Shown: positions 25,092 through 52,064, numbered from the stretch's first letter. The stretch is 64,000 nucleotides of DNA from Planctomycetota bacterium (GCA_002684655.1 NYVR01000022.1:30175-94174), one strand, 5' to 3'. A program made the numbers and translations. Notes: generated by a model from the sequence alone, not told the origin.

Positions 25092-25103
25092 GCGGACAGG
25101 GCG

Positions 25104-29845: not shown

Positions 29846-29903
29846 TTGTCCGCGCTGCCTACGCTGCCTCGGACCCTCGCTCAAGGTCACCGTTGAACTG
29901 CTC

Positions 29904-31550
29904 ATGACATCACGCTGTATCGCCACGTTGGCGGCTGTGCTCCTGGTCACGACGACGCCTTTGTCGTCGCAGCAGGGCTCGCCGACTGCCGCCCAAAGCA
30001 AGCAGGAGCTCGCCGAGGGCAAGTTCAAGCAGTTGACGGACCGCATGCAGAAGATGATGGTCGTCCTGCAGAAGGACGAGCCCGAAGAGAGCAAGCTGCT
30101 GGGCGTGGGTCTGCGTTTTGTCCAAGAGAAGAGGCTGCATCGTCGGCTCGAGTCCGCTGGCGCGATGTTGCGGCAGGAGCGCTGGGACGAGTCCCTAGTC
30201 TTGATGGGCAAGCTCCGCGAAGACCTCCGGTCTCTGCTAGCGTTGCTGCAGAACCGCGACGGGGACCTGCGCAAGCTGCTCGCGCGTATCGATCAGTTGG
30301 AGGGATTTAGGGATCGGGTCGACCAGCTCGCCTCAGAGCAGCAGCAGGCAAAAGAGGATTCCGCGCGCGCTGAGGCGCTCAAACGACACCTTGAGGACAT
30401 CGAGGCCCAGCGACGCCGCGCCGGAGACCTGCTGAATCAGCAGCAGGCCCTGCGAGACGAGACCAACCAGTTGCCGCGCGACACCGCCGCGGGGGCGACG
30501 ACTCCGTTGGCGAAGAAGGAGGGCGAGCTCCAGGCAGCAGCCGTGGAACTCAGCAAGGACCTGCGCGATCTCGACAAGCAGGACGCCGCCCTCAAAGCAG
30601 ACGCGAAAGCGGTCAGCAAACCGGACGATGCGAAGCCCGCTGGAGGCGCGTCGAGCAGCGCTGACGCATCGCGCGGTAAGTCGAGCGACAGCGCCGGCCA
30701 AGCGTCGGCGTCGATGGGCAAGGCTGAGGAGCAGCTCGGCGCTCAGCAAGCCGAGGCTGCGCTAAAAGACCAGGACGAAGCGATCGCCGCGCTCGATCAG
30801 ACGATGAAGCAGCTCGACGCCATGGCCGCGGCGGCCCGACGCGAGCTCATGAAGCTCTCTTTCGACCAGCTCGCGGAGCGACAAGGCCAGACCGAGCAAG
30901 CGACCGACGCGCTCGCTAAGGATATGGAGCAGGCTGAGCAGTCGGACCAGGGCGGCGAAGGCGAGCCCACACCCGGTAAGAGCAAGGTCCAACAGGCCGT
31001 CCCAAAGCAGCGCGCTGCGGCAGGAAAGCTCAAAGAGATGAAGCCGGCTAAACAAAAGCAGCAAGACGCGAAAGACGACCTAGAGGCCGCGAAAGAGGCG
31101 CTGGAGGGAGCGCTCACGCAGCTGCGGGAGCAGCTGCAGGACGAAGCGCTGCGTGCGCTCGAAGAGCGCTTCACGGCGATGTTGGCACGTCAACGTGAGC
31201 TCACGCTCATGACCGCGACGGTCGACGCCTCGCGTCGGAACATCCTCACCGCCGATGGTGGGCTGCCTGCAGCGCTGATCGGAAAGATCGACGCCATCGC
31301 CCAGGGCGAGAGCGAGTTAGAGCTCGAGACGGTCGAAGCGCTCAAGCTCCTCGACGAAGACGGGACGACGGCGGTTTTTCCGCCGATGGTCGAACAGCTT
31401 CGTGATGACCTGAGAGATCTCGTTCGTGTCCTGCGCGCGCGCCAGACCGGCGTCGAGACCAATCGGGCGCAAAGAGACGTCGAGGACCTCCTTGAGCTCT
31501 TGATCAACGCGCTGCGTCGCACGATCGAGAAGAAGGAAGGCGGGGGTTGA
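29904..31550 (+). CDS. Secreted coiled-coil, low-complexity protein
   Basis: ATG at 29904 gives MTSRCIATLAAVLLVTTTPLSSQQ, a signal peptide. The rest is a long Glu/Lys/Ala/Gln/Leu-rich heptad-like sequence. It ends at a TGA that is in frame with the next ORF. Confidence 0.6.
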   Translation: MTSRCIATLAAVLLVTTTPLSSQQGSPTAAQSKQELAEGKFKQLTDRMQKMMVVLQKDEPEESKLLGVGLRFVQEKRLHRRLESAGAMLRQERWDESLVLMGKLREDLRSLLALLQNRDGDLRKLLARIDQLEGFRDRVDQLASEQQQAKEDSARAEALKRHLEDIEAQRRRAGDLLNQQQALRDETNQLPRDTAAGATTPLAKKEGELQAAAVELSKDLRDLDKQDAALKADAKAVSKPDDAKPAGGASSSADASRGKSSDSAGQASASMGKAEEQLGAQQAEAALKDQDEAIAALDQTMKQLDAMAAAARRELMKLSFDQLAERQGQTEQATDALAKDMEQAEQSDQGGEGEPTPGKSKVQQAVPKQRAAAGKLKEMKPAKQKQQDAKDDLEAAKEALEGALTQLREQLQDEALRALEERFTAMLARQRELTLMTATVDASRRNILTADGGLPAALIGKIDAIAQGESELELETVEALKLLDEDGTTAVFPPMVEQLRDDLRDLVRVLRARQTGVETNRAQRDVEDLLELLINALRRTIEKKEGGG

Positions 31551-31583
31551 ACAGGTTGCGGAGACGGCAAGAAGCCGCCGCTC

Positions 31584-31793
31584 GTGCCCGTGTCGGCAGA
31601 GCTCAAGATGTTGAAGTTCCTTCAAGAACGCGTGAACAAAGAGACCAAGCAGGTCGAGGCGCTCGGCGCTGCGAGTAAAGCGCAGCAGGGCGACTACGAT
31701 CAGGTGTCGCGTAAGCAGTCGCGCGTAAAGTCGCTGATGCGTCGTCTCGCCGAGAAGCTAGGCGAGCAAGACGCAGGCGAGGAGGGCAAGTGA
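31584..31793 (+). CDS. Small ORF in the same frame as the preceding gene; it may be its detached C-terminus
   Basis: Same reading frame as 29904..31550, separated only by TGA (31548-31550) and 11 open codons. The sequence is AELKMLKFLQERVNKETKQVEAL... Confidence 0.4.
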   Translation: MPVSAELKMLKFLQERVNKETKQVEALGAASKAQQGDYDQVSRKQSRVKSLMRRLAEKLGEQDAGEEGK

Positions 31794-32845
31794 TGCAGTG
31801 GCCCCCAGCAGTCGCGGTCCTCGTGACGGCGGTGATGGCCTCCGGGCTTCGGGGCCAGGTGCAAATACCGGGCGACGGCGTGCTGCCCGAGGCGCACTTG
31901 CCGAAGGTGACGCCCGTCCCGGCGCAGAGCCCGTTCAAGCCGTTGGATCTGACCGCGTTCCAGCTCGCCGTGCGGGCGCTCGGCGGCACGGCGCTACAGG
32001 TCAAGACGTTCGCCGAAGAGGCTGTCGAAGTCGGCCCCGCTCGGGCCGGCGACGGCTTGCTTCGCATGGTGTTGCCTAGTTTCGACGTGGCGGTGACGGC
32101 CGCCGAGGGCGGGGACCCGAACGCCGCGCTGCTGCTCGCGAAGGTCTTGGTCGACGCCGAGTCGAAGGTGGTTCAAGCGCACGCCCGCTACCACCTCGCG
32201 CGTGTGTTCCTCGATAGCGACGACCCTGAGCGCGCGCTCAAGGTGCTGGATGACTACTTGGCGCAGACCCTTAACGTGTCGCCGCTCGACAGCGAGGTGG
32301 CGTATCTCTACGCGCAGTCACTCGCGGAGATCCCGATGATCGACGCGGCCATTCCGCGGTTCCGCGCCTTCCTGGCGTGGTTCCCTGACGCGAGCGAGCG
32401 GCTGCGGTCAACCGCTCACCAGCGGATCCTGGAGCTTGAGCGTCAGCGTGAGAGCCGTCTTCACATGCTCGCGGACGGAATGAAGAAGACCACCCGCGAC
32501 CTTCAGAAGCGCAAGACTGACAAGCCGGTTCAAAGAGACCAGGAGACCTACATCGAAGAGCTCGACTATCTCATTGAGATGTTCAAGGAGATGGAGAACC
32601 AGTCGTCGGGCGCCCCCTCAGGCAACGGTCCCTCAAGCAATCCAGCTTCGAACAGCTCCTTGGCCAAAGGCGACGGCAGCGTCGGCGAGCTCAAGAAGCG
32701 ACCTTCACTGGCGGATCGGTGGGGCCCGATGCGCGACAGTGAGCGCAAGAAGATCATGGCCGACGTGCAGAGCACGATGCCGCCCCAGTACCGAAAGATG
32801 CTGGAGGATTACTACAAGAAGCTCGGTAAGGCTGACCGCAAGTGA
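31793..32845 (+). CDS. Secreted hypothetical protein, helical/TPR-like
   Basis: GTG at 31790 or ATG at 31793 overlaps the upstream TGA. The N-terminus MQWPPAVAVLVTAVMASGL is hydrophobic. The central region is helical-repeat-like. The C-terminus is YYKKLGKADRK. Confidence 0.6.
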   Translation: MQWPPAVAVLVTAVMASGLRGQVQIPGDGVLPEAHLPKVTPVPAQSPFKPLDLTAFQLAVRALGGTALQVKTFAEEAVEVGPARAGDGLLRMVLPSFDVAVTAAEGGDPNAALLLAKVLVDAESKVVQAHARYHLARVFLDSDDPERALKVLDDYLAQTLNVSPLDSEVAYLYAQSLAEIPMIDAAIPRFRAFLAWFPDASERLRSTAHQRILELERQRESRLHMLADGMKKTTRDLQKRKTDKPVQRDQETYIEELDYLIEMFKEMENQSSGAPSGNGPSSNPASNSSLAKGDGSVGELKKRPSLADRWGPMRDSERKKIMADVQSTMPPQYRKMLEDYYKKLGKADRK

Positions 32846-34056
32846 GCAGGTTGTCCATCGTTGGTCCTGTCTTCGTGGCGCTGCTCAGTGCGGCGGTTAC
32901 AGCGCAAGCAGAAGGCGAGGTCCAAACGATCGACGGGCGGGCGTTCCAAGGTAGCTTTGTCGTCGCAGCTAACGGTGAAGTGACCGTTCGCGGCGAGTCG
33001 GGGGACACGGTGATCGGGATCGAAGAGCTCGTCTCGTTCGTCCCTGAGGGGGTCAGGGCGCGCAACGTACGCACGGAACACCGCGTTTGGCTTCGCTCCG
33101 GCGTCGACCTACCGGCAAGGAGGCTTTCAGGCCGCGGACCTGCTGACGGCGAGCCCTCGACGCTGCTCGTCGGTCTCCCGTGCGGCGCATCCATCGAGCT
33201 GCCGTTGAGCGCGGTGCGCGCGATTCGGCACGGCGGGCTCTCGCGGCCGCAGCCGGCGTTGTTCGAGCGCGACCTCCTCGAGCCGCCTGCTAACGAAGAC
33301 GTGATCTACGCGATCGGTGGCGGCAAGTCTCAGCGCTCGCTGGTAAAGCTCACCGCCGTTCGGGAGCGATCGATCGATTTCGTCCTGCGCGGCGATGAAT
33401 ACGAGTTTGGCTTAGACGGGCTCGCAGGCGTGGTCTTTGGCGAGAACACGGGCTTCGCGCCTGACCGCCAAGCGAGCCCTCGCACGAGCGTGATTTTGAC
33501 CACGGGGGAGAAGCTCGAAGGCAAGTTGTTAGAGGTGGGCGAGCGCGTGCGCTGCCGCCTCGACGAAGGCTGCGTGCTCGACGTCCCCGTGAGTTCTCTG
33601 CGTGAGCTGCGGGTCTCAAGCGACAAGCTGGTGTGGCTGAACGACCTCGAACCACGCGTCGAGCAAACACCCGCGTTCGATCGCGTCTGGCCTTGGCATA
33701 ACAACAGGTCTGTCGCGGGTCCGGGTTTCCTGCTCGGCGGGCACCGTTATGAGCGCGGCGTCGGTCTCGTCCCGCGCGCTCGCCTGACCTACGTGATCGC
33801 AGGTCGCTTCGACGTCTTCGAGGCCGTGATCGGCATCGACGACCGGGGCGGCCCAGCGGCGCACGCGATCTTCCGGGTCTACGTCGATGACAAACAAATG
33901 TTTGAGTCCAAGCCAAAGGTGCTCGGTGGCGCGCCGTCGAAGGTCCGCGTCGAGCTGAATCGGGCGAAGACCCTCTCCATTGAGGTCGACTTCGGCAAGA
34001 ACTACGACCTCGGCGATTTCTGCGCGTTCGCCGACGCGCGTCTCCTCCAGAAGTAG
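32842..34056 (+). CDS. Secreted protein with a C-terminal NPCBM-like (GH98-associated carbohydrate-binding) domain
   Basis: GTGA start/stop overlap. Signal peptide LSIVGPVFVALLSAAVTAQA. The C-terminus LNDLEP...WPWHNNRSVAG..LLGGHRYERGVGLVPRARLTY...FEAVIGIDD...FRVYVDD....LSIEVDFG...DLGDFCAFADARL fits the NPCBM pattern. Confidence 0.7.
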   Translation: MSRLSIVGPVFVALLSAAVTAQAEGEVQTIDGRAFQGSFVVAANGEVTVRGESGDTVIGIEELVSFVPEGVRARNVRTEHRVWLRSGVDLPARRLSGRGPADGEPSTLLVGLPCGASIELPLSAVRAIRHGGLSRPQPALFERDLLEPPANEDVIYAIGGGKSQRSLVKLTAVRERSIDFVLRGDEYEFGLDGLAGVVFGENTGFAPDRQASPRTSVILTTGEKLEGKLLEVGERVRCRLDEGCVLDVPVSSLRELRVSSDKLVWLNDLEPRVEQTPAFDRVWPWHNNRSVAGPGFLLGGHRYERGVGLVPRARLTYVIAGRFDVFEAVIGIDDRGGPAAHAIFRVYVDDKQMFESKPKVLGGAPSKVRVELNRAKTLSIEVDFGKNYDLGDFCAFADARLLQK

Positions 34057-34224
34057 TCCGTCGCCGACGCGCTCGCTCCACTTTGTCGGGTGTGATGCTG
34101 TGCGTCGGCTGGGCGCATGCCGCTAGGTAGCCGCGGCCGAGCTCTGCGAGGCTGTCATGGCCGTGGCGCGCGCGTAGTCGCCCCGGCAGGAGGTCAAAAG
34201 GTCGCTCAGCGCGACGGCGAGCGG

Positions 34225-34797
34225 CTACCAGATTGGGATGGGGAGCCAGAGCAGGTGCAGCGTGCTCTGGCTCTCGTCGCTTGTGAACCCGAGCAGGCCG
34301 CGGAGGAATCTCGCGCTGCGGCGGCTCTCGACCCCGGGAGATTCGCCAGAGTGCTCGTAGTCGAAGACGATTCCCCAGCCGACGCCGTATGAACCTCGCC
34401 ACTGGACCAGCGCGCCGTCGACGTCCCAGGTCCCCTCCTGAATATTGTAGATCGCAGCGCCCAGCGCGACGGCCCCGCCGCTGCGGTGCTCGTAGCCGCT
34501 GATCGCGGCGCTGGCCGTCTCCTCACTCACGGCGACTTCGCCCCTATGTAGCGAGTTGGAGATGTCGTAGCGGAGCAGGCCCAGCGGCGCGAACCCGAAC
34601 GGCAGCCCGGTCAACTGGCCCTCGATGGACGCGGTGTTCTCGGAGGATGTCGCTTCGGCGGCCTGCTGCAGGTGGTGTAGGTCTAGGCCGCTTAGATGTT
34701 GACGCGTGGTAATTTCTCGCGCGTCTCCGACTTTGCATGACGCCAGGATTAGGGCCAATGAACAGCGCAGCGTTTTCAGCGACCGTCTCGGCTTCAC
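34225..34797 (-). CDS. Lipoprotein, hypothetical
   Basis: The start is proposed at GTG 34797, giving (M)KPRRSLKTLRCSLALILASC, a good lipoprotein signal. The upstream part of the listed 248-aa ORF is Cys/Arg-rich and implausible as coding. Confidence 0.6.
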   Translation of the reverse strand: MKPRRSLKTLRCSLALILASCKVGDAREITTRQHLSGLDLHHLQQAAEATSSENTASIEGQLTGLPFGFAPLGLLRYDISNSLHRGEVAVSEETASAAISGYEHRSGGAVALGAAIYNIQEGTWDVDGALVQWRGSYGVGWGIVFDYEHSGESPGVESRRSARFLRGLLGFTSDESQSTLHLLWLPIPIW

Positions 34798-35158
34798 GGA
34801 CGTCCGCTCAGTCGGCGCCGTGCATCGTGTTTTCGCGGCGACGGTCTCGGACGGACAGCAGCGGCATTTCGAGCGGCAAATGTGCATGATCAAGTTGTAT
34901 GGGACGGTTGCTACGAGCGAGGCAGGAGAGCAACTGCGAAATGGCGACGCCAGCGCGGTTTCCGTATTCACGTTGCATCGCTGCGAAGAAAACGTCGATG
35001 TCTTTGGCCACTACGCCGCGCGGCGGTGACGGAGCCGGACTTGTTACGTCTCACCACGATGATCGCCGCCACGGGACCTACGTGGCCTGCCGCATGACGT
35101 CGCGATTCATCTACCAGTATCATCGCGCCCTGCGACCGGGAGCGGAGGAGTTGTCGGT

Positions 35159-37000
35159 ATGACCAGGGGCGCGGACTGCGTGGTCGTGGGCGGCGGACCT
35201 GCGGGCCTGACGACTGCATATGAGCTCGGCAAATACGGGAAATCGTCGGTCGTGTTCGAGGGGGGCGACGACGTCGGCGGGCTCTCGAAGACATGTGAAT
35301 ACCGCGGCTACCGCTTCGACATCGGTGGTCACCGGTTCTTCACCAAGGTCGACTACGTGCAAGAGCTGTGGATCGAGATCCTCGGCGACGAGTTCTTGAG
35401 CCGCCCACGGCTGTCGCGCATCTACTACCGCGGCAAGATGTTCGACTATCCGCTCAAGCCGATGAACGCGCTGCTCGGGCTGGGCATCTTCGAGTCTGTG
35501 CGTATCGGACTCAGCTATCTGCGCGCGTCGTTCTTCCCCTCTAAGGAGGAGCGCAACTTTGAGCAGTGGGTTTCCAACCGCTTCGGCAAGCGCCTGTTCG
35601 AGATCTTCTTTAAGACCTACACCGAGAAGGTCTGGGGGATCCCGTGCGATCAGATCAGCGCGGAGTGGGCTGCTCAGCGCATCAAGAACCTCGACCTCAG
35701 GGCTGCGGTGATCAACGCGTTCCTCGGCGCGCGTAAGCGTGGCGGCAAAGAAGTGATCACGACGTTGATTGAGCGCTTCCAGTATCCGCGCTTCGGTCCC
35801 GGCCAGATGTGGCGTGCGTGCGCCGACAAGCTGCGCGCGGCGGGCAATCAGGTCGAGCTCGGCTCGATGGTCACGCGCCTGCGCCACGACGGGCAGCGCG
35901 TGATCGCAGCGACCGTTAAGCGCAAGGACGGCGCAGAAGAGGAGGTCGCGGCGCCGCACTTCGTCTCGACGATGCCGGTGCGCGACTTGCTGCGCGCCCT
36001 CGATCCGCCGCCGCCGCCAGAGGTCATCGCCGCTAACGACCGGCTGCGTTATCGCGACTTCCTCACTGTCGCGGTGATCGTCGACGCAGAGGAGCTGTTC
36101 CCTGATAACTGGATCTACATCCACGCACCGGACGTCAAAGTGGGCCGCATCCAGAACTACAAGAACTGGAGCCCCGACATGGTGCCGGACGCGAGCAAGA
36201 CGGCGCTCGGCCTCGAGTATTTTGTCCAAGAAGGCGACGAGCTCTGGGCGATGTCGGACGAGGACCTCGTCGCGCTCGCGACCGCGGAGTGCGAGCGCCT
36301 CGACCTCGTGCCTAAGGGGTCAGTCGAGGGCGGCAGCGTCATCCGCGAGAAGAAGGCCTACCCTGTCTATGACGACGTCTACAAGGAGGCGCTCGAAGAG
36401 ATCCGGGCGTGGCTCGGCACGCTGGAGAACCTGCAGCTGGTCGGTCGCAACGGTCAGCACCGCTACAACAACCAGGACCACTCGATGATGTCTGGTGTCT
36501 TCGCTGCGCGGAACATCGCCGGCGAGCAGCACGACGTGTGGGCCGTCAACGTCGAGCAGGATTACCACGAGGAGAAGCGAGAGGGCGAGGCGAGCGGCGC
36601 TACCGGCGAGCGCCTCGTGCCAGGTCGCGTCACCGAGCGCGAACTTGAAGACGTGCTCGCCTCGACGTTTGCGCGCTACGACCAGCTCGCGCTTGGCGTC
36701 GCGGTCGGCGTGGTCGTCGGGATCATGCTGTTCCTGGCGACGGTCGTGTTGTTGCTCCGCGGTGGTCCTGGCGTCGGCTACCACCTCTCTATCCTCGGCC
36801 ACTACTTGCCGGGCTATAGCGTCAGCTGGGCCGGCGCGGTCATCGGTTTCTTTGAGGCCGCGGTTGTCGGGTTCCTCCACGGGTGGTTGATCAGCAAATT
36901 GATCAACGTAATCGTCGGCAGAGAAGAGCGACGTCTGCGGACTCGCCTCGCCGCGGCGTCAGCTTCACCGGACTCGATCGCTCGAGGTGACTCCGAATGA
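35159..37000 (+). CDS. NAD(P)/FAD-dependent oxidoreductase fused to a C-terminal two-TM module
   Basis: Dinucleotide-binding motif VVVGGGPAGLTTAYEL...VFEGGDDVGG and FDIGGHRFF. RBS ggaggag lies before the ATG. The C-terminal roughly 100 aa is hydrophobic (LFLATVVLLLRGGPGVGYHLSILGHYLPGYSVSWAGAVIGFF). Confidence 0.8.
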   Translation: MTRGADCVVVGGGPAGLTTAYELGKYGKSSVVFEGGDDVGGLSKTCEYRGYRFDIGGHRFFTKVDYVQELWIEILGDEFLSRPRLSRIYYRGKMFDYPLKPMNALLGLGIFESVRIGLSYLRASFFPSKEERNFEQWVSNRFGKRLFEIFFKTYTEKVWGIPCDQISAEWAAQRIKNLDLRAAVINAFLGARKRGGKEVITTLIERFQYPRFGPGQMWRACADKLRAAGNQVELGSMVTRLRHDGQRVIAATVKRKDGAEEEVAAPHFVSTMPVRDLLRALDPPPPPEVIAANDRLRYRDFLTVAVIVDAEELFPDNWIYIHAPDVKVGRIQNYKNWSPDMVPDASKTALGLEYFVQEGDELWAMSDEDLVALATAECERLDLVPKGSVEGGSVIREKKAYPVYDDVYKEALEEIRAWLGTLENLQLVGRNGQHRYNNQDHSMMSGVFAARNIAGEQHDVWAVNVEQDYHEEKREGEASGATGERLVPGRVTERELEDVLASTFARYDQLALGVAVGVVVGIMLFLATVVLLLRGGPGVGYHLSILGHYLPGYSVSWAGAVIGFFEAAVVGFLHGWLISKLINVIVGREERRLRTRLAAASASPDSIARGDSE

Positions 37001-37305
37001 TGTCTCCTGAAGATCGGGTGATGCTCAGGCGCGCGGTCGCCAGGATGCGATCGCGGATCGTTGCTGTCTCGTGCGCGGTGATCAGCGGCTCTGCCCTGAT
37101 GATTGCAACGATCCTGCACATCGCGCGAGAGCGCGCCCCGTCCACCTTGGACATCGCTTTGCTCGCGAACTACTTGCCTGGCTACAGCGTCAGCTGGCTC
37201 GGGGCGCTGCTTGGTTTGTTCTATGGCGCGCTCCTCGGCGGAGTCTTTGGCGGAGTCTTCGCGTGGTTCTACAACCGGCTCGCGATGCGAGATCCTGCGT
37301 CGTGA
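36997..37305 (+). CDS. Small two-TM membrane protein, paralog of the oxidoreductase C-terminal module
   Basis: ATGA overlap with the upstream stop. LLANYLPGYSVSWLGALLGLFYGALLGG aligns with the two other copies. Confidence 0.65.
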   Translation: MMSPEDRVMLRRAVARMRSRIVAVSCAVISGSALMIATILHIARERAPSTLDIALLANYLPGYSVSWLGALLGLFYGALLGGVFGGVFAWFYNRLAMRDPAS

Positions 37306-37333
37306 GGCGGGCACCCCGGGGTAGAGGTCACCG

Positions 37334-38239
37334 ATGAGTCAGGGGCTCTCCGTCGTGATCCCTACGCATCGCCGTCCAGGCAAGATCGCAGCATGCCTCG
37401 ACGCTCTCGCGGCGTCGGAGTATCCCCACGGCCCGCTGCAAGTCTTGGTCGTCGAGGACGGCGGCCCGACCGATGAGCTCGCAGAGCTGCGCGTGCGATC
37501 TTTTGACGCGCTCGATCTCGTGTGGCTGGATCAGCCGCACGCCGGCCCTGCCGTGGCCCGCAACCTCGGCGCGCGGCACGCGACGCGGGATCTAGTCGCG
37601 TTCACGGATGATGACTGCTGTCCGCGCCCTGACTGGGCCCGTCGCCTCGACGAGCAGCTCAGGTCCGCGCCCGGGACCGTCGTCGGCGGACACACCGTCA
37701 ACAAGGTCGCCGGTAACCTCTGGTCGGGCGCCAGCCAGGCGCTGGTGACGTATATCACCGCGCGCGGTCAACAAACCGACGGCGAGCCGTTCTTCGCGTC
37801 GAACAACTTCGCGCTCGAACGTGAGCTGTTCGTCGAGATGGGCGGCTTTGACGAGATGTTCCCGCTCGCGGGTGGAGAAGATCGGGACATGTGCCGACGC
37901 TTGGTGGAGTCGGGTCACGACCTCGTCTGGGTTCCTACAGCGATCGTCGATCACTACCACCACCTCACGGCGCGTCGTTTCTGGGACCAGCACTTTCGCT
38001 ATGGTCGCGGCGCGTATCAGTATCACTGCGCGCAAGGGCGACGGGCCGATCCGAACGACCCGAACCCGAGCCGCGGCGTCTGGAACATGCGCGCGCGGTT
38101 TTACCTAGACCTCGTGCGGTCTCCGTTCCGTTATCGGGACGCGCCGCAGGCGGTCCGTATCGCTGCGTTGCTGCTGTTCTCCCAGCTCCCCAACGCGCTC
38201 GGGTTCTTCGCTGAGCGTCGGCGCGATCGCAGCGCTTAA
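37334..38239 (+). CDS. Family 2 glycosyltransferase
   Basis: LSVVIPTHRRPGKIAACLDAL...VLVVEDGGP...ARNLGA...VAFTDDDC...GGEDRD, the GT-A/GT2 motif set. Confidence 0.8.
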   Translation: MSQGLSVVIPTHRRPGKIAACLDALAASEYPHGPLQVLVVEDGGPTDELAELRVRSFDALDLVWLDQPHAGPAVARNLGARHATRDLVAFTDDDCCPRPDWARRLDEQLRSAPGTVVGGHTVNKVAGNLWSGASQALVTYITARGQQTDGEPFFASNNFALERELFVEMGGFDEMFPLAGGEDRDMCRRLVESGHDLVWVPTAIVDHYHHLTARRFWDQHFRYGRGAYQYHCAQGRRADPNDPNPSRGVWNMRARFYLDLVRSPFRYRDAPQAVRIAALLLFSQLPNALGFFAERRRDRSA

Positions 38240-38253
38240 GTCCGAAGGCGCCG

Positions 38254-39780
38254 TCAGCGCCGCCTGACGAGCAGGTGACGCAGCGCCGCGCGGTCTCTAG
38301 GGCCGAGGCCGAAGATAAGAGAGAGCGCGAGCCACGCCGTCGCGCAGGCCGCCAGCGCCACCGTCCAACCGAATTCGCCGCCGCCGCCTTCGCGGAAGCG
38401 TCCCGCGATCACGTAGACGAGTCCGCCGCTGATCAACGCGATCAGGCTGTCCTTCGACCAAGGGTGGATGCGGAAAGTCCACCAGACCTGCGCCGCGAGC
38501 GCGATTCGCACCGCGCCTCGCGCCGCCGTCGCCGCGCAAGCCGCGCCGAGGGCGCCGTGTTGGGGGATCAGCAGCAGGCAGAGCACGACGTTGAGGCAGA
38601 GCATCGTGATCACGTTGATCATGTTTTGGCGGATACGGCCCATGGCGATCATCGCTTTTCCGCACGAACCGGTCATCGCGGTTATTACTTGTCCGATCAC
38701 CAAGACACTGAGCACAGGCGCGCCTGCCGCAAAGTCGGGTCCGAACAGCCCGAGGATGTCGCCTCCCCAGATGACCAGCAGCAACGCCGCGCCGATCGCC
38801 GACCATATCGACCAGCGCGCGGTGCGTTTGTAGATCGCGTCGATCTCTTGCATGTCGCGGTCGACGAAGCGCTCGCTGGCGTAGGCGTAGAACAACTGCG
38901 CAGCGTTTTGGTGCACGACGAAGACCACTGGCAGCATCCGCACCGATGCGCCGTAGTAGCCGGCCTGCGCCGGCTCGCTGAGCACGCCCAGCAGCAGGAT
39001 GTTGACGCTGGACAACGCAAACGCGACGAGGCCTGTGCCCAACAACGGCCAACAGGTTTGCAGCAGGTCGCGTACGGGCCATGCGGATGAGGGGGCATGC
39101 GCCTGCAGCGCGCCTGGCACACGGGCGCGCACGTATCCCAAGCTGCAGAGAAGTCCGGTTGTTGGGCCGAGCAGCGTCGCGACGAGGACGCCGGTCACGC
39201 CGAGGTCGAGCTGCCACGTGACGATCAGCCCCGCGAGCGTCGCAGATACGGTAACGACCTTTTCGATAATGGCTTGTGCACGCAAGGCCTTGAATCCTTG
39301 CGCGATCGCCAAGGAGGCGAGCATCACTGCCGCGAAGGCGACCGTCGGCGCGAGCCAGCGCAGCATCGGCGCGATCGCCGGGTCTCTGAAGGCCGCGCGC
39401 GCCAGCCATGGCGCGAGGACGAACAGGGCAAGGGCTAAGAGCCCTGACGCAGCGACCGTGATCGCCCAAGTCGAGCGCACGATCGCGCGCATGCCGGGCT
39501 CGTCGGCGTTGAGCCGCGCGCGGGCGACGAAGGGGACGACGCCCGGCGAGAGCCCCAGCGTCCCAGCCATGCTGAGCAGCTGCGTGATTGTCTGCGCCTG
39601 TACATAGCTACCGAACAGCCTGATCCCGAGCGCCTGTGTCGTCAGCAACGCGGCGATGTAGCGCAGCGCCATGCCGATCATGCTCGCGAGCACCGAGACG
39701 CTGACTTGGCGACCGGCGTTGTCCACCTCGGGGTTCGAGTTTCCGCTGGTCTGAGTTTTGTCGATCGCCATCGAAGTCAT
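38254..39780 (-). CDS. Oligo/polysaccharide flippase (MOP superfamily, Wzx-like)
   Basis: 508 aa with about 12-14 TM segments in a typical polysaccharide-biosynthesis-protein layout (LRYIAALLTTQALGIRLFGSY...). Confidence 0.8.
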   Translation of the reverse strand: MTSMAIDKTQTSGNSNPEVDNAGRQVSVSVLASMIGMALRYIAALLTTQALGIRLFGSYVQAQTITQLLSMAGTLGLSPGVVPFVARARLNADEPGMRAIVRSTWAITVAASGLLALALFVLAPWLARAAFRDPAIAPMLRWLAPTVAFAAVMLASLAIAQGFKALRAQAIIEKVVTVSATLAGLIVTWQLDLGVTGVLVATLLGPTTGLLCSLGYVRARVPGALQAHAPSSAWPVRDLLQTCWPLLGTGLVAFALSSVNILLLGVLSEPAQAGYYGASVRMLPVVFVVHQNAAQLFYAYASERFVDRDMQEIDAIYKRTARWSIWSAIGAALLLVIWGGDILGLFGPDFAAGAPVLSVLVIGQVITAMTGSCGKAMIAMGRIRQNMINVITMLCLNVVLCLLLIPQHGALGAACAATAARGAVRIALAAQVWWTFRIHPWSKDSLIALISGGLVYVIAGRFREGGGGEFGWTVALAACATAWLALSLIFGLGPRDRAALRHLLVRRR

Positions 39781-39793
39781 CGGACCTTATACG

Positions 39794-41092
39794 ATGGCGC
39801 CCTCTCCGGCGATCGATGCTCGCCCAGGGGTCATCATGAACAGCGACAGGCAAGACGACACGACGCTGCTGGCGCGGATCACCGGCCGCCGCGCGCTCGA
39901 CGCCGCCGCCTGCGCGCTAGCCGCCGTCGCCTTGGTCTGGATGGGCTATCAGTTTTGGAGGCTGGTGTTCCAACGGGGTGTGAGCCGGGCCGTCGACCTG
40001 CACCTGCGTCACGGAGAATGCCAAGAGTGGTTCGAGGGGGTGTCGATCTACGCGACGCGCGTCGACGCGGTCTACCCTCCGGCGACCTATGTGATGCTCT
40101 GGCCGCTGCTCGGATGGTTGGAATGGCCGGCGGTGCGGGTGTTCTGGTGCTTGGTGACGTTGTTGTCGATTGTCTGGATGTGCAGGCTCGCCGTCACCTA
40201 TGGCGAGGTCACCGAGCCACGCCGTCGGCGCCTGCTCTGGCTCATGCCGCTGGCGTGCTATCCTGTGGGCGCCACGGTCGGAAACGGTCAGATCTCGATC
40301 CTCGTCGTAGCTTGCTTGTTCGCTGGTCTGATGCTGTTAGGCCGCGAACGTCCCTCCTGGCGGCGTGACCTGACGATCGCTGTCTTGATGTTGGGCGCGC
40401 TCATGAAGCCGTCGGTCTCGGCGTTCTTCTTTTGGATCCTAATGTTCGCCCCTGGCGGGATGCGCGCGGCTTGCCTCGTAGGCACCGGCTACGTCGCGCT
40501 CACCTACGCCGCGTCGCTCGCGCAGGACAGCGGTCCGATTGAGCTGATGGATGCGTGGCTGGAGCGCGCGCGCGCGGGGATGTTATGGGGCTCGTCTCGG
40601 GGTGGCGGCGCGATCGTGAACGGCACAGCTGGCGTACAGATCACGGGAATCAACCTCGCCAGCATTTTGAGCGCGGTGGGTTCGCAGGCGTTGATCTTGC
40701 CCGTCACCGTCGCGGCGTTGGCGCTGCTGGGCGCGTGGATCTTATGGCGTCGTCGAGCCCGTCTCCTGAGTCTCCTCGGGGTCACCGCGATCGTCGCGCG
40801 CTTCAGCGTCTATCACGGCTGGTACGACGACGTGCTGATGTTGATCCCGCTGGTTGCACTGATCGCGTGGGCGCGCGGCGGAGCGAGCGCTCGGAGTCGC
40901 GCGATGGCCGGCTGGCTGTCGCTCGGATTCGGACTCTCCCTGCTGGCGCCGGGCGGGATCTATTCGTTGCCGAGAGCGCTCGCCAACGCATACGCGATCG
41001 GCCAGAGCGTGTGCTGGTTGGCGGGCTTGGTCTTCCTGGCGTGGACGGCGCGAAGTCCCGTCCGCGATCGGCGCGTTATTGCTTCTGAATGA
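39794..41092 (+). CDS. Integral-membrane GT-C type glycosyltransferase (DUF2029/GT87-like)
   Basis: Multi-pass membrane protein with VDAVYPPATYVMLWPLLGWL, the GT87-like YPP motif region. The start could be 39794 or 39836. It lies only 13 nt from the divergent flippase start. Confidence 0.55.
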   Translation: MAPSPAIDARPGVIMNSDRQDDTTLLARITGRRALDAAACALAAVALVWMGYQFWRLVFQRGVSRAVDLHLRHGECQEWFEGVSIYATRVDAVYPPATYVMLWPLLGWLEWPAVRVFWCLVTLLSIVWMCRLAVTYGEVTEPRRRRLLWLMPLACYPVGATVGNGQISILVVACLFAGLMLLGRERPSWRRDLTIAVLMLGALMKPSVSAFFFWILMFAPGGMRAACLVGTGYVALTYAASLAQDSGPIELMDAWLERARAGMLWGSSRGGGAIVNGTAGVQITGINLASILSAVGSQALILPVTVAALALLGAWILWRRRARLLSLLGVTAIVARFSVYHGWYDDVLMLIPLVALIAWARGGASARSRAMAGWLSLGFGLSLLAPGGIYSLPRALANAYAIGQSVCWLAGLVFLAWTARSPVRDRRVIASE

Positions 41093-41119
41093 CGTCTCGC
41101 CTACGACCGTCAATCGACG

Positions 41120-41419
41120 ATGACTGCTGAACCGAACGGATCCGGCAAGGTTGTCCAGCTCAGGCCTGGCGCGCTGGCGGTCGTCTTCGCTGCCTTGGGA
41201 GCGACCGCGCTCTTTTTGGCTACGAGCATCTTGCTGATCCGAGGCGGGCAGGACGTCGGCAAGCACCTTCAGCTGCTCCGCTACTACCTGCCTGGGTATA
41301 CGGTCAGTTGGCCCGGCGCCCTATTGGGCTTCGTCTACGGCGCGGCGTTCGGCGCCGTAACGGGTGCGGCGATCGCGAAGATCTCGAACGCCGTAACCAG
41401 GCTGCGGACCTCCCAGTGA
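41120..41419 (+). CDS. Small two-TM membrane protein, third copy of the YLPGY(S/T)VSW module
   Basis: LFLATSILLIRGGQDVGKHLQLLRYYLPGYTVSWPGALLGFVYGAAFG aligns along its whole length with the C-terminus of 35159..37000. Confidence 0.65.
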   Translation: MTAEPNGSGKVVQLRPGALAVVFAALGATALFLATSILLIRGGQDVGKHLQLLRYYLPGYTVSWPGALLGFVYGAAFGAVTGAAIAKISNAVTRLRTSQ

Positions 41420-42405
41420 GCGTGACCGTCAGCGCGGTCGTCCCGGTGCTCGACGGCAAGCACCAGCTTGAGCGCAGCCTCCCGCCGCTGATGGCCGCGA
41501 AGGACTCGGGCCAGCTCCTTGAGGTCTTGGTCGCGGACGACGGGTCGACTGACGGGTCAGGGGACTACGCGCGGTCTGTCGGCGCCCGCGTCGTCACGAC
41601 ATCCCGCCGCGCAAGCGGCCCGTCTCGCGCCCGCAACCTCGCGGCAGAGCAGGCCCGTGGAGATGTGCTCTTGTTTGTAGACGCGGACGTAGTGGTCGAC
41701 GAAGCTGCGGTCGCCGGCGTGCTCGCGACCTTCGCAGACGCCGACGTGGCGTCGGTCTACGGCTCATACGACGACGAGCCGGCGCACCGCGGCTACGCCA
41801 GCCTCTACATGAACCTCCGCCACCACTTCGGCCACCGGGAGTTCAGCGATGACGTCGACACGTTTTGGGCGGGGCTCGGCGCGATCCGTCGTGACGCGTT
41901 TCTCGCGGTCGGCGGATACGACGCGGACGCGTTCCCCTACCCGAGCGTAGAAGACATCGACCTCGGTCGGCGGCTTCGAGGGGCGGGCGCGCGCATCCGG
42001 CGTGACCCAACGATTCGTGGCAAGCACCTCAAGCGGTGGACTTGGTGGCAGGTCGTGCACACCGACGTGATGCGCCGCGCGGCGCCGTGGAGCCTGCTGA
42101 TGCGTCGTTTTCCGGGAGCGTTCCGTGACCTCAACGTCTCGAGCGCCGAGAAGCTCAAGGCGGCGCTCGCGCTGGCCTTCATCATGTGCGGCCTGTTCGC
42201 CGTTTTCGTGCAGGTCGCGGCGTGGGCTTGGCTGCTGCTGTTGTTGGCGGTCGGCTTCGCGAATAAGAAGCTGTTCGGAGTGTTCGTACGAGGGGCGGGT
42301 CTGCCGTTCGCGATCTTCGGCCTGCTGTTCCACCAGCTCCACCTTTGCTACAGCGCAGCGACTTTCGTCACCTGTCGGTTGCTGCCGATGCCAAAGCGAG
42401 ACTGA
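41416..42405 (+). CDS. Family 2 glycosyltransferase with C-terminal TM segments
   Basis: GTG at 41416 overlaps the upstream TGA (GTGA). VSAVVPVLDGKHQLERSL...VLVADDGSTDGS...ARNLAA...LLFVDADV...VEDIDLG. The C-terminus has hydrophobic helices. Confidence 0.8.
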   Translation: MSVTVSAVVPVLDGKHQLERSLPPLMAAKDSGQLLEVLVADDGSTDGSGDYARSVGARVVTTSRRASGPSRARNLAAEQARGDVLLFVDADVVVDEAAVAGVLATFADADVASVYGSYDDEPAHRGYASLYMNLRHHFGHREFSDDVDTFWAGLGAIRRDAFLAVGGYDADAFPYPSVEDIDLGRRLRGAGARIRRDPTIRGKHLKRWTWWQVVHTDVMRRAAPWSLLMRRFPGAFRDLNVSSAEKLKAALALAFIMCGLFAVFVQVAAWAWLLLLLAVGFANKKLFGVFVRGAGLPFAIFGLLFHQLHLCYSAATFVTCRLLPMPKRD

Positions 42406-42440: not shown

Positions 42441-44348
42441 TCAGCGCCGGGGTAGCTGCGCCCGCAGCTTCTCGATCTGGAAGCGCACCTTCTGGTTGTT
42501 CTGGACCTGAGGCAGACCGATCGCTTGTGAATACACCGCGTAAGCCCTGTCGGTCATGCCAACCGCGGTCAGCACCCTGCCGAAGTTCACCAGCGGCTTC
42601 ACCTTGCGGCCGCCAGAAACCTGGACGAGCAGCTGGGCCAGCCGAACGCCGAGGGTTTGTTCTTCCTGCGAGCTCTTGTTGTTCGCGCTGCTCAGCGCGA
42701 GCGCCGCAATCTTAGGCTCGCGCGACGGATCCAGTCGAAGCACGGTTCCGACCAACTCCATGGCCTCCTGCATCTGTCCGAACCCAGCGCATACGATCGC
42801 AAACTCCTCGTGGAACGGCACCTTTTTCGGCCGAAGCTTCACCGACTTCCGGTAGCCCTTGAGACACCGCTCCAGGTAGGCCTTCTCAGAGGGGTTGGCC
42901 TTGTAGAGCTTGCGGCAGACCCTGCCGATCTGCTGGTGGATCCTCGGATCGCGCCGCCGCAGCTTCAAGCACGCCTCGCACAACTCCAGCGCGCGCTCTT
43001 CTTCGCCGGCTGTGTAGAGCACCTCGGCGAGCGTCCACTGGGTCATGTAGTTCTTCTTGATCTCGCAAGCTCGCTGCGCGTGATGCAGCGCGCGGTCGAT
43101 CTCCCCGGCTCTCAGGAGCGGCGTCGCCAGGCAGTAGTGGGCCCGCTCGTTCTCCGGCTGCGCCGCGATCGAAGACTCCCAGATAGACACCACGGACCGG
43201 TAGTCGTAGTTCCGCAGCACGGTCAAGCCGCCGTAGACGACCAGCGCGCCGCACAGCGCCTTGCCCGGCGCGATGTTCCAGCGCGCGCAGAGCATCCTGC
43301 CGCCAGCGACGCCGAAGGCGATCACTGGGATCAGCGACAAGTACATTCGGTATTCGCACATCAGATCGTTGATCACGATGACGCTCGACGTCGGCGCGAG
43401 GATCAGGAAGAACCACGCGCCGCCAACGCCCTGCCAGGATCGCCGCATCAGCTGCCGGACCGTGAACGCCATCATCCCGCTGACCAGCAGCGCGGCGGGC
43501 AGGATCGCTAGCAGGCTCGTCGACGCGCGCCGCCCGTAGTCGAAGCAGAGCGGATAGGGCGCCAAGGCGAGCCGGAGGTAGTCGACCAGGACCGCAGGCT
43601 GGTTGCTGGCGTATTCCCACACGCTGAAGCCCCCGCGGTTCGTCGACGTGTTGGGCAGCACCACGGTGACGCCCAGCGCAACCACGACCGCGAACAGCGC
43701 GTAGAGCGGCCAACGCGCGCGGAGCGCGCCGCGGAGGCTGCCGCTGATCAGCACCCAGTCGTAGATGAGCAAGACGGGGATCACCGCGACCATCGTCTCC
43801 TTGGACCCGAACCCTAGCAGGCAGCAGAGGATCGAGAGCGATGTCCAAAGCGCGCGCCGGTCGCCCTCGTCGGCGCGCAGCGTCGCGTAGATCGCCCCGA
43901 GGAAGAACATGCCCATCTGCGACTCGCAGCGCTGCCAGACGTAGGTGACCGCGCTGGTGTTGAGCGGGTGCACGACCCACAGCGCCGCGACCGCGAAGGC
44001 GACGCCGCGGGCCGTCTCGGGCGTCATCGCAGCGCACCGCGGCAACATCAGCGTCCGGCGCACGACGCCGTAGAGGAGCAGCGCCGCGGTCGTATGGATG
44101 AGGATGTTGACTAGGCGGAAGACGGCGGGTTCGGCGCCGGCGATGGCGTAGTTCAGCGACAGCGAGAACATCATCACGGGCCGGTTGCGGTAGTCGTCGA
44201 ACGACCACAAGTCTCCGACGCCCGAGGACGGGTTGGTGATGAAGACGTTGTCATCCAGCAGGAAAGGCGCCTGGATGCCGATGGCGTAGACGCCCCAGGC
44301 CAACGCCACCAGAATGACGCCGTGCAGGCGGCTGCTCATGCGCCCCAC
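42441..44348 (-). CDS. TMTC/PMT-like GT-C membrane glycosyltransferase with C-terminal TPR repeats
   Basis: The N-terminus has about 10 TM segments with FLLDDNVFITNP near the start, which is TMTC/DUF1736-like. The C-terminal roughly 230 aa has TPR-like repeats (HYCLATPLLRAGEIDRAL..., ALELCEACLKL...). Confidence 0.7.
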   Translation of the reverse strand: MGRMSSRLHGVILVALAWGVYAIGIQAPFLLDDNVFITNPSSGVGDLWSFDDYRNRPVMMFSLSLNYAIAGAEPAVFRLVNILIHTTAALLLYGVVRRTLMLPRCAAMTPETARGVAFAVAALWVVHPLNTSAVTYVWQRCESQMGMFFLGAIYATLRADEGDRRALWTSLSILCCLLGFGSKETMVAVIPVLLIYDWVLISGSLRGALRARWPLYALFAVVVALGVTVVLPNTSTNRGGFSVWEYASNQPAVLVDYLRLALAPYPLCFDYGRRASTSLLAILPAALLVSGMMAFTVRQLMRRSWQGVGGAWFFLILAPTSSVIVINDLMCEYRMYLSLIPVIAFGVAGGRMLCARWNIAPGKALCGALVVYGGLTVLRNYDYRSVVSIWESSIAAQPENERAHYCLATPLLRAGEIDRALHHAQRACEIKKNYMTQWTLAEVLYTAGEEERALELCEACLKLRRRDPRIHQQIGRVCRKLYKANPSEKAYLERCLKGYRKSVKLRPKKVPFHEEFAIVCAGFGQMQEAMELVGTVLRLDPSREPKIAALALSSANNKSSQEEQTLGVRLAQLLVQVSGGRKVKPLVNFGRVLTAVGMTDRAYAVYSQAIGLPQVQNNQKVRFQIEKLRAQLPRR

Positions 44349-51987: not shown

Positions 51988-52064
51988 TGGCGCACCCGAG
52001 AGGAGTCGAACCTCTGACCTACGGCTTCGGAGACCGTCGCTCTATCCAGCTGAGCTACGGGTGC
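51988..52064 (-). tRNA. tRNA-Arg (anticodon CCG), CCA encoded
   Basis: The reverse complement folds as a cloverleaf: GCACCCG TA GCTC AGCTGGATA GAGC G ACGGT CTCCGAA GCCGT AGGTC AGAGG TTCGACT CCTCT CGGGTGC G CCA. It is 77 nt long. Confidence 0.9.

Follow-up and report, generated by a model that had tools for sequence, protein, structure and literature searches.

We found that a stretch of 64,000 nucleotides from a marine Planctomycetota bacterium (metagenome-assembled genome, MAG; GCA_002684655.1 NYVR01000022.1:30175-94174), referred to here as the window, encodes three copies of a small membrane module with two transmembrane (TM) segments. One copy forms the C-terminal part of a flavoenzyme, and the other two are free-standing proteins. 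The modules represent a new and widespread family in a known general role, that of a small membrane subunit of a glycosylation machine; what is unexpected is the client, an enzyme related to UDP-galactopyranose mutase (UGM). According to the sequence comparisons described below, the modules are most likely the membrane subunit that holds together a pathway made up of this sugar-mutase-like enzyme and a family-2 glycosyltransferase (GT2). The features involved are listed here, with coordinates counted from the first nucleotide of the window (ORF, open reading frame; aa, amino acids; AF2, AlphaFold2; pLDDT, predicted local distance difference test).

35159..37000, plus strand: flavoenzyme ORF of 613 aa, ending in a TGA at 36998-37000.
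35159..36574, plus strand: catalytic domain of the flavoenzyme (aa 1-472), UDP-galactopyranose-mutase-like, matching NCBIfam PRK07208.1-4.
36575..36634, plus strand: linker (aa 473-492), modelled as disordered and carrying a GDRLVP motif, from AF2 pLDDT and conservation in homologues.
36635..36964, plus strand: module copy 1, fused to the flavoenzyme (aa 493-602), fused type, with Glu566 in TM2 and Asn583; profile match at 36638-36931, E 6e-35.
36997..37305, plus strand: module copy 2 (mod2), 102 aa, free-standing, free type (Tyr76, Tyr92-Asn93); profile E 6e-44.
41120..41419, plus strand: module copy 3 (mod3), 99 aa, free-standing, diverged free type (Tyr73, Asn90); profile E 4e-42.

An earlier reading of this DNA, made from the sequence only (hereafter the sequence-only reading), had proposed that the three segments are homologous. 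This was borne out by a three-way protein alignment, which retained 21 invariant columns, including Y-L-P-G-Y-x-V-S-W-x-G-A, and by a search of the whole 64-kb window with the family profile, which matched exactly three places (E 6e-35 to 6e-44). The presence of the fused module was also correctly recognized, but its start had been placed too late; the helices of the AF2 model indicate a longer module, covering nt 36635-36964. The match of 25 of 27 nt previously noticed between 36803-36829 and 37171-37197 is exact, and the third copy of this DNA core is found in mod3, at 41285-41311. Across the 66-codon core, the three copies share in pairwise comparisons 53-60% of their DNA and 35-50% of their protein sequence, with a third-position identity of 0.39-0.50. 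Because these values are so low, the copies are old paralogues, and a recent duplication or gene conversion was ruled out as the origin of the DNA-level match. When mod2 and mod3 were compared with their orthologues in a related Planctomycetota MAG (L005), the ratio of nonsynonymous to synonymous substitution rates (dN/dS) was 0.27 and 0.19, respectively, with dS about 1; both small ORFs are thus under purifying selection and therefore coding. In the public annotation of the source MAG, MAD32849.1 is a 'FAD-dependent oxidoreductase' (FAD, flavin adenine dinucleotide) and MAD32850.1 a 'hypothetical protein'.

The genes are joined at their boundaries in the way that the sequence-only reading described. 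The ATG of mod2 (36997-36999) overlaps the TGA of the flavoenzyme (36998-37000) as ATGA, a first GT2 gene (GT2a) begins at 37334, 28 nt past mod2, and the TGA of mod3 (41417-41419) overlaps the GTG start codon of a second GT2 gene (GT2b, 41416-41418) as GTGA. To follow this arrangement beyond the window, one genome per species was scanned, which yielded 198 confirmed loci; the counts given here refer to the best 80 of these (L005-L084; own annotation). These 80 loci span at least 10 phyla and include Planctomycetota, several Acidobacteriota classes, Gemmatimonadota, Myxococcota, Eiseniibacteriota, KSB1, Margulisiibacteriota, Binatia, and Gammaproteobacteria. The flavoenzyme-module fusion was present in 74 of the 80 loci, and it was directly followed by a free module in 72 of these 74, the exceptions being mostly contig ends. 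In 40 of 71 pairs, the start of the free module and the stop of the enzyme share 4 or 1 nt, and most of the others lie no more than 26 nt away. A full-length relative of GT2b, not of GT2a, was found within 6 kb in 54 of the 80 loci (within 300 bp in 31). In 21 loci the GT2b-type gene is located directly downstream of the free module, and in 16 of these it either overlaps the module gene or is separated from it by no more than 30 nt.

The linkage to the flavoenzyme and to GT2 genes is therefore found again among homologues, and the survey refines the view that both free copies are coupled to a GT2 gene. This view holds for mod3, whose neighbor GT2b is of the type present in 54 loci, but not for mod2, whose conserved partner is the fused module of the enzyme rather than GT2a. 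According to the survey, the ancestral core is [mutase-like enzyme-module][free module][GT2b]. In the lineage of the window, as well as in L005, the free module has been duplicated, with GT2a, a flippase gene, and a GT87 gene between the two halves, leaving mod2 coupled to the enzyme and mod3 to GT2b; the three intervening genes are a lineage-specific insertion. Genes for a CE4 (carbohydrate esterase family 4) deacetylase and for a MOP flippase occur in 24 and 16 of the 80 loci, respectively. A CE4 polysaccharide deacetylase gene is also present in L003, L085, L086, and L089, four loci described below, and a radical-SAM gene in about 10 survey loci; the window carries neither. The presence of CE4 and radical-SAM genes hints at an N-acetylated sugar that undergoes later modification.

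Natural fusions provide independent evidence about the partners of the module. Proteins with two modules in tandem (186-203 aa) are common, and the AF2 model of one of them consists of four long helices (pLDDT 72). At the tandem loci, a third, single module is encoded just upstream of the tandem. In L085 and L087 an unfused mutase-like enzyme is encoded just downstream, so that three modules directly precede the enzyme; this enzyme is further off in L086, and none was found within 8 kb in L003. A second type of system can thus be distinguished, in which three modules (a single one plus a tandem pair) lie upstream of an unfused enzyme (L085, 5336-7851; L087, 9044-11630); the window reaches the same number by another route, the duplication of the free module. 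Three modules are also present in the single chain of P0272, and in P0301 (L089, 4818-6938) tandem modules are fused to the N-terminus of the mutase-like enzyme. The fusions further include GT2 enzymes. P0300 is composed of a GT2b-like part, 44% identical to GT2b of the window over its full length, and two modules; GT2a is only 26% identical to the GT2 part found in a GT2-module fusion. An independent protein, P0419, is 74% identical to P0300, and P0473 and P0525 are made up of a GT2b-like part and one module, an arrangement that in L090 precedes a free module and a MOP flippase. Finally, P0271 (780 aa) joins three modules to a Wzy_C membrane domain (O-antigen ligase/polymerase-like), and this links the family to glycan assembly at the periplasmic face. 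The joining of modules in tandem and triple chains is a classic sign that separate chains associate. Together, the near-universal linkage to the enzyme, the linkage to GT2b, and these independent fusions support the proposal, already made in the sequence-only reading, of a dedicated membrane adaptor or subunit.

The flavoenzyme is a bacterial relative of the eukaryotic-type UGM, as indicated by its sequence, its fold, and its active-site residues. It scored 703 bits against NCBIfam NF005548 (PRK07208.1-4), which is named 'hypothetical protein' at NCBI. Its best sequence matches in the PDB were the UGMs of Aspergillus fumigatus and Trypanosoma cruzi (phmmer, E 6e-26), with an identity of only 22-24%; that of A. 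fumigatus (AfUGM) aligned over residues 5-348 and 427-455. The same UGMs were the best Foldseek matches of the AF2 model (E 5e-29, TM-score 0.76-0.82), ahead of protoporphyrinogen oxidases, and the flavoenzyme has the UGM fold with the FAD Rossmann element. Residues were mapped through the phmmer PDB alignment onto the active site of AfUGM (His63 loop, Tyr104, Arg182, Trp315, Tyr317, Arg327, Arg447, Tyr453, and Asn457). The equivalents H58, Y97, R174, W318, Y320, R330, R430, Y436, and N437/N438 were invariant in 73 of 73 homologues, and this set covers the GGH of the His-loop, both catalytic arginines, and the Trp, Tyr, and Asn equivalents of the substrate site. The enzyme is accordingly predicted to be a nucleotide-sugar pyranose-furanose mutase. 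Since it did not reach the threshold of the prokaryotic Glf equivalog TIGR00031 (30.1 bits vs. a cut-off of 303.75), we refer to it as UGM-like and not as Glf. Many of its homologues are labeled 'protoporphyrinogen oxidase' at JGI; this annotation is probably wrong, because sequence, fold, and active-site residues indicate a UGM-like mutase.

Taken across phyla, the best 120 homologues of the flavoenzyme show about 60% identity, and nearly all of them measure 595-660 aa (one form has 497 aa), so the form in which enzyme and module are fused is the norm. In this the flavoenzyme differs from the UGMs of A. fumigatus and T. cruzi, with which it shares the closest sequence and fold and the active-site residues and which lack the C-terminal two-TM module. 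To our knowledge, no membrane-tethered UGM has been described, and our search of the literature returned none. The furanose product of UGM is the minor species at equilibrium, and this provides a rationale for physically coupling the mutase to the transferase that consumes its product. The UGM-like identity of the enzyme thus suggests a reason for the membrane tether.

UGM-type enzymes need a reduced flavin, and the module might instead link the flavoenzyme to the quinone pool or to a membrane redox partner, either keeping the FAD reduced or allowing a true oxidoreductase reaction on a lipid. The fold is indeed shared with the membrane-associated protoporphyrinogen oxidases, and the conserved intramembrane Glu, Tyr, and Asn residues described below could form a binding site. 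We consider this role very improbable, given that no quinone-site motif or homology was found, that the invariant residues are those with which UGM binds its substrate and not those of the oxidases, and that the fusions with GT2b-like and Wzy_C proteins would be left unexplained.

The layout of the module was obtained from hydropathy and from the AF2 model of the full flavoenzyme (pLDDT 82.8), both of which indicate two TM segments per module. In the model, the fused module has a juxtamembrane helix (aa 493-503), TM1 (509-534), a loop helix (541-548), and TM2, which continues into a cytoplasmic tail (557-602). It is preceded by residues with a pLDDT below 50 (aa 473-489), modelled as a disordered linker. 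Inside this linker lies the conserved G-D-R-L-V-P motif (aa 483-488, window 36605-36622); among 41 homologues, its R485 and P488 are almost invariant, and a partner could dock at this short motif. Because the flavoenzyme lacks a signal peptide and depends on cytoplasmic cofactors and substrates, the hairpin is oriented N-in/C-in, and the Y-L-P-G-Y-S-V-S-W loop therefore faces outward. The topology of every natural fusion fits this orientation. The outer loop comprises roughly 22 residues and carries the near-invariant motif N-Y-[LF]-P-G-Y-S-V-[ST]-W-x-G.

The fused and free modules fall into two classes with different signatures, which were counted over 71 fused/free pairs, with the TM2 positions in mod3 numbering. 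In both classes TM2 is a transmembrane glycine zipper, with (G/A/S)xxxGxxxG on one helix face. Glycine occupies positions 66, 70, 74, 78, and 82 in 71, 71, 63, 65, and 71 of the 71 free modules and in 70, 66, 12, 69, and 70 of the 71 fused ones, position 74 of the latter being Ala in 45; mod3 also gave a weak match to Pfam Gly-zipper_OmpA. Both classes also share an invariant residue, Asn90, located where TM2 ends on the inner side. The fused type is characterized by an F-A-R-Y-D-P leader and a charged C-terminal tail, and the free type by two invariant elements, the P-G-Y-S-V-[ST]-W-x-G loop and a Y-N that closes TM2. In the middle of TM2, the classes differ at one position: fused modules carry Glu (57/71) or Gln (5/71) there, and free modules Tyr (58/71) or Trp (13/71). 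The window follows this pattern, with Glu566 in the fused copy, Tyr76 in mod2, and Tyr73 in mod3. Hidden Markov models of the two classes separated the copies in the same manner: the fused copy scored 147 bits on the fused class vs. 95 on the free class, whereas mod2 (113.5 vs. 68.7) and mod3 (116 vs. 83) scored higher on the free class than on the fused class. With 113-116 bits, vs. about 150 for the canonical partners, mod2 and mod3 are diverged members of the free type. From these signatures, a buried Glu-Tyr pair beside the glycine zipper is a plausible lock for a heterodimer. A stricter rule, according to which a Glu-type module always stands next to the enzyme, was rejected; it is true for the canonical type, P0301, and P0272, but it is broken by the Gln of most 203-aa tandems and by the Tyr or Trp found throughout L087. 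A mutual-information scan between fused and free modules (71 pairs) was also discarded, as it returned only signals confounded by phylogeny.

These signatures bear on another explanation, that each module is a local and independent anchor or regulator of the adjacent enzyme, with no hetero-oligomer and no bridge between mutase and GT2. The start/stop coupling, which is always with the immediate neighbor, agrees with it, and the contact between modules is something that we infer. Such local anchors would leave unexplained the free copy that follows the fused copy in 72 of 74 loci, the tandem and triple chains, and the complementary signatures of the two classes, and for these reasons we regard this alternative as improbable.

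To place the modules among known families, we searched for relatives of the window copies and of 34 family members. The family itself is large: a profile search recovered 1,173 proteins at 90% clustering, and an exhaustive HMMER search of 1.84 billion representatives gave 1,292 clusters (50% identity) at E<=1e-3, of which 525 at E<=1e-10. The source databases call these proteins 'hypothetical protein'. The window copies gave only sub-threshold matches in Pfam, NCBIfam, and PHROGs, as did the 34 family members in Pfam and NCBIfam; the suspicion that the module is not a named family thus proved correct, no threshold of a curated family having been passed. The nearest Pfam entry was DUF5676 (PF18926), also a small two-TM family ('2TM family of unknown function'). 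Against a gathering threshold of 27.6 bits, mod2 scored 18.5 and mod3 14.8, in alignments limited to profile positions 51/52-82 of 82, which correspond to the glycine-zipper part of TM2; the fused copy did not match this entry. Weak matches to DUF5676 (E<0.01, best 2e-5) were given by 20 of the 34 members, and P0115, a homologue from the database, has a precomputed DUF5676 annotation. A profile search against PDB sequences returned no match for the module, and Foldseek comparison of the tandem-module AF2 model with the PDB and BFVD gave nothing significant (best E 1.4 and 0.77, TM-score about 0.2). In the library that was searched, nothing relevant was found on DUF5676, PRK07208, membrane-anchored UGM, or eukaryotic-type bacterial UGM, and DUF5676 and PRK07208 are mentioned in none of its papers.

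Another sub-threshold match raised the question of whether the small ORFs are holin-like pore formers, derived from phages or related to lysis or export. NCBIfam NF037947 'holin_4' was matched below its cut-off of 70 bits by the window copies (28.2, 18.2, and 23.6 bits) and, over the whole 75-position model, by 30 of the 34 family members (best E 4.8e-7); in addition, one of the 34 matches Pfam Phage_holin_3_6. TM helices with glycine zippers are also known from small proteins that form pores. This origin is largely refuted, and hardly any weight can be given to it, since the holin_4 scores (18-28 bits) are far from the cut-off, no PHROG was found at a meaningful E-value, tblastn against 50,697 phage records returned no homologue of the modules, and the tandem model has no viral (BFVD) or PDB structural match. 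Moreover, the inspected neighborhoods contain neither phage genes nor a lysis-cassette context, their genes being those of glycan biosynthesis, and the module is covalently fused to biosynthetic enzymes.

We therefore return to the modules as a membrane subunit of the mutase/GT2 pathway. Its specific form, in which glycine-zipper hairpins assemble into hetero-oligomers that hold the mutase at the membrane and connect it with GT2b, is in our judgment somewhat better than an even proposition. The hairpins would associate with each other in the inner membrane through TM2, the fused hairpin of the Glu/Gln type pairing with one or two free hairpins of the Tyr/Trp type. The resulting bundle of 4-6 helices would tether the cytoplasmic UGM-like mutase beside the membrane-bound GT2b. 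The disfavoured furanose nucleotide sugar could then be passed directly to GT2b and consumed where it is made, and GT2b would build a lipid-linked sugar. In the window, the flippase, GT87, and PMT_2 enzymes would subsequently move and use the lipid-linked product, as a lineage-specific step.

Several observations weigh against this scheme. At the level of gene neighborhoods the link to GT2 is not obligatory, because 26 of the 80 loci have no GT2b-type gene within 6 kb (9 of the 26 have a truncated flank). The Glu/Tyr rule also has exceptions, namely nine fused modules without Glu or Gln, and L087, in which all three modules have Tyr or Trp. A mere anchor would need neither a loop motif nor polar intramembrane residues that are invariant across phyla, and GT2b and Wzy_C possess TM helices of their own, so that anchoring does not by itself explain their fusion to modules. 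Likewise, the contacts of modules with each other and with their partners are deduced from sequence patterns, as are the predicted mutase activity, sugar, and acceptor.

In the main rival explanation, the bundle of hairpins serves, instead of or in addition to its role as a scaffold, as the flippase that translocates the lipid-linked product of GT2b. Such a bundle would represent a minimal analogue (2+2 or 2+2+2 TM) of GtrA or of ArnE/ArnF. The loop motif and the polar intramembrane residues (Thr35, Glu/Tyr73, Asn90) are conserved far beyond what a passive anchor needs, and modules are fused to proteins that already have TM helices (GT2b-like, Wzy_C). The core of a mutase, a GT2, often a CE4 deacetylase, and two small membrane proteins resembles, by analogy, the three-component and Arn-type pathways, and most loci have no other candidate flippase, a MOP flippase being present in only 16 of 80. 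Nevertheless, we consider it rather unlikely that the bundle is a flippase. Pfam, PDB profile, and Foldseek searches revealed no resemblance in sequence or fold to a transporter, GtrA and SMR/ArnEF included; in some loci, among them the window, L003, L086, and L090, a MOP flippase adjoins the modules, and a second one would be redundant there; such a model does not require the fusion of a flippase subunit to a soluble nucleotide-sugar mutase; and four Gly-rich TM helices make a small device. The scaffold and the flippase are not mutually exclusive. A bolder version, which we hold to be doubtful, makes the hairpins a new minimal class of translocator. Two or three 2-TM units would come together in a glycine-zipper bundle with a Glu-Tyr pair buried in it, physically joined to the enzymes that produce the cargo. 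Mutase, GT2, and flippase would then be an assembly line yielding a furanosyl (possibly N-acetyl-hexosaminyl) lipid, and this pathway would be widespread among Planctomycetota, Acidobacteriota, Gemmatimonadota, and Myxococcota. If this were true, the membrane-tethered mutase, the GT2, and the flippase would work as a single unit.

Among known systems, the closest in architecture are Dpm2/Dpm3 of the eukaryotic DPM (dolichol-phosphate-mannose) synthase, with the GtrA family also close; the modules belong to neither. Like the modules, Dpm2 and Dpm3 are small proteins of the membrane that keep a glycosylation enzyme anchored there, fused or free depending on the lineage. The C-terminus of Saccharomyces cerevisiae Dpm1 takes the place of Dpm3, so that the anchor is fused rather than separate (PMC7728079). 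The modules differ in their clients, a nucleotide-sugar mutase-like flavoenzyme and a GT2, and in being mutual paralogues that also form tandem and triple chains. No match to Pfam DPM2 or DPM3 was found among the window copies or the 34 family members, and the resemblance is one of function and architecture only.

The GtrA family (Shigella flexneri GtrA, Mycobacterium tuberculosis Rv3789, Listeria GtcA) and ArnE/ArnF resemble the modules in being small and hydrophobic and in being encoded with polyprenyl-phosphate-sugar GT2 and GT-C enzymes. In Arn-type pathways, the flipping step is assigned to a pair of small membrane proteins. GtrA has 3-4 TM segments in one chain and constitutes a defined Pfam family, whereas the modules are 2-TM units, proposed to multimerise and fused to enzymes; profiles of GtrA and SMR/EamA (Pfam, NCBIfam) matched neither the window copies nor the 34 family members. 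The parallel with Arn stays an analogy, because the associated CE4 enzymes resemble PgaB/IcaB and not ArnD, and the resemblance of GT2b to ArnC is marginal. The ambiguity between flippase and anchor is nonetheless shared with Rv3789. In three-component pathways, the flipping step is assigned to small membrane proteins of the GtrA family, and for Rv3789, which acts in the arabinofuranose pathway, the literature is split between a flippase and an anchor that recruits enzymes (PMC7389260).

The modules of the window are part of a glycan-biosynthesis island of eight genes, which extends from the flavoenzyme at 35159 to the PMT_2/TPR gene at 44348. In addition to the flavoenzyme, mod2, and mod3, it comprises the following genes.

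37334..38239, plus strand: GT2a, soluble family-2 glycosyltransferase (Pfam Glycos_transf_2, E 8e-21).
38254..39780, minus strand: MOP/Wzx-type flippase (Pfam Polysacc_synt, E 3e-18).
39758..41092, plus strand: GT87-family (GT-C type) membrane glycosyltransferase (Pfam GT87, E 6e-12).
41416..42405, plus strand: GT2b, family-2 glycosyltransferase with a C-terminal hydrophobic region (Pfam and NCBIfam; hydrophobic segments at aa 249-304).
42441..44348, minus strand: PMT_2-type (GT-C) membrane glycosyltransferase with a TPR domain (Pfam PMT_2 and TPR families).

Hydropathy revealed no hydrophobic or TM segment in GT2a, and for neither GT2a nor GT2b did the PDB offer relatives more informative than the generic GT2 fold. 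The GT87 gene, as listed, starts with a TTG and shares 23 nt with the 5' end of the divergently transcribed flippase gene (window 39758-39780); the true GT87 start is probably further downstream. The PMT_2/TPR gene marks the end of the island, whose flanks are unrelated to it: an NPCBM protein is encoded upstream and Peripla_BP_2/FecCD transport genes lie downstream. The upstream region (22827-34056) encodes a BatA-domain protein, three large ORFs (583-831 aa) without a Pfam match, a TPR protein, and the NPCBM-domain protein. It is separated from the flavoenzyme by about 1.1 kb (34057-35158) without a supported ORF or an Rfam match, and the sole Rfam match in the window is a tRNA gene at 51991-52064 on the minus strand.

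These results define an unannotated and very widespread family of membrane proteins (about 1,300 clusters, at least 10 phyla) with a concrete set of partners, and its natural fusions can guide structural and interaction studies. If the proposed mechanism is true, the family would offer a natural example of how an unfavourable pyranose-to-furanose equilibrium is pulled through the coupling of mutase and transferase. It would also provide a handle on a furanose-containing lipid or glycan of the envelope in poorly studied phyla, and it would constitute a new paradigm for small subunits, parallel to Dpm2/Dpm3 and GtrA.

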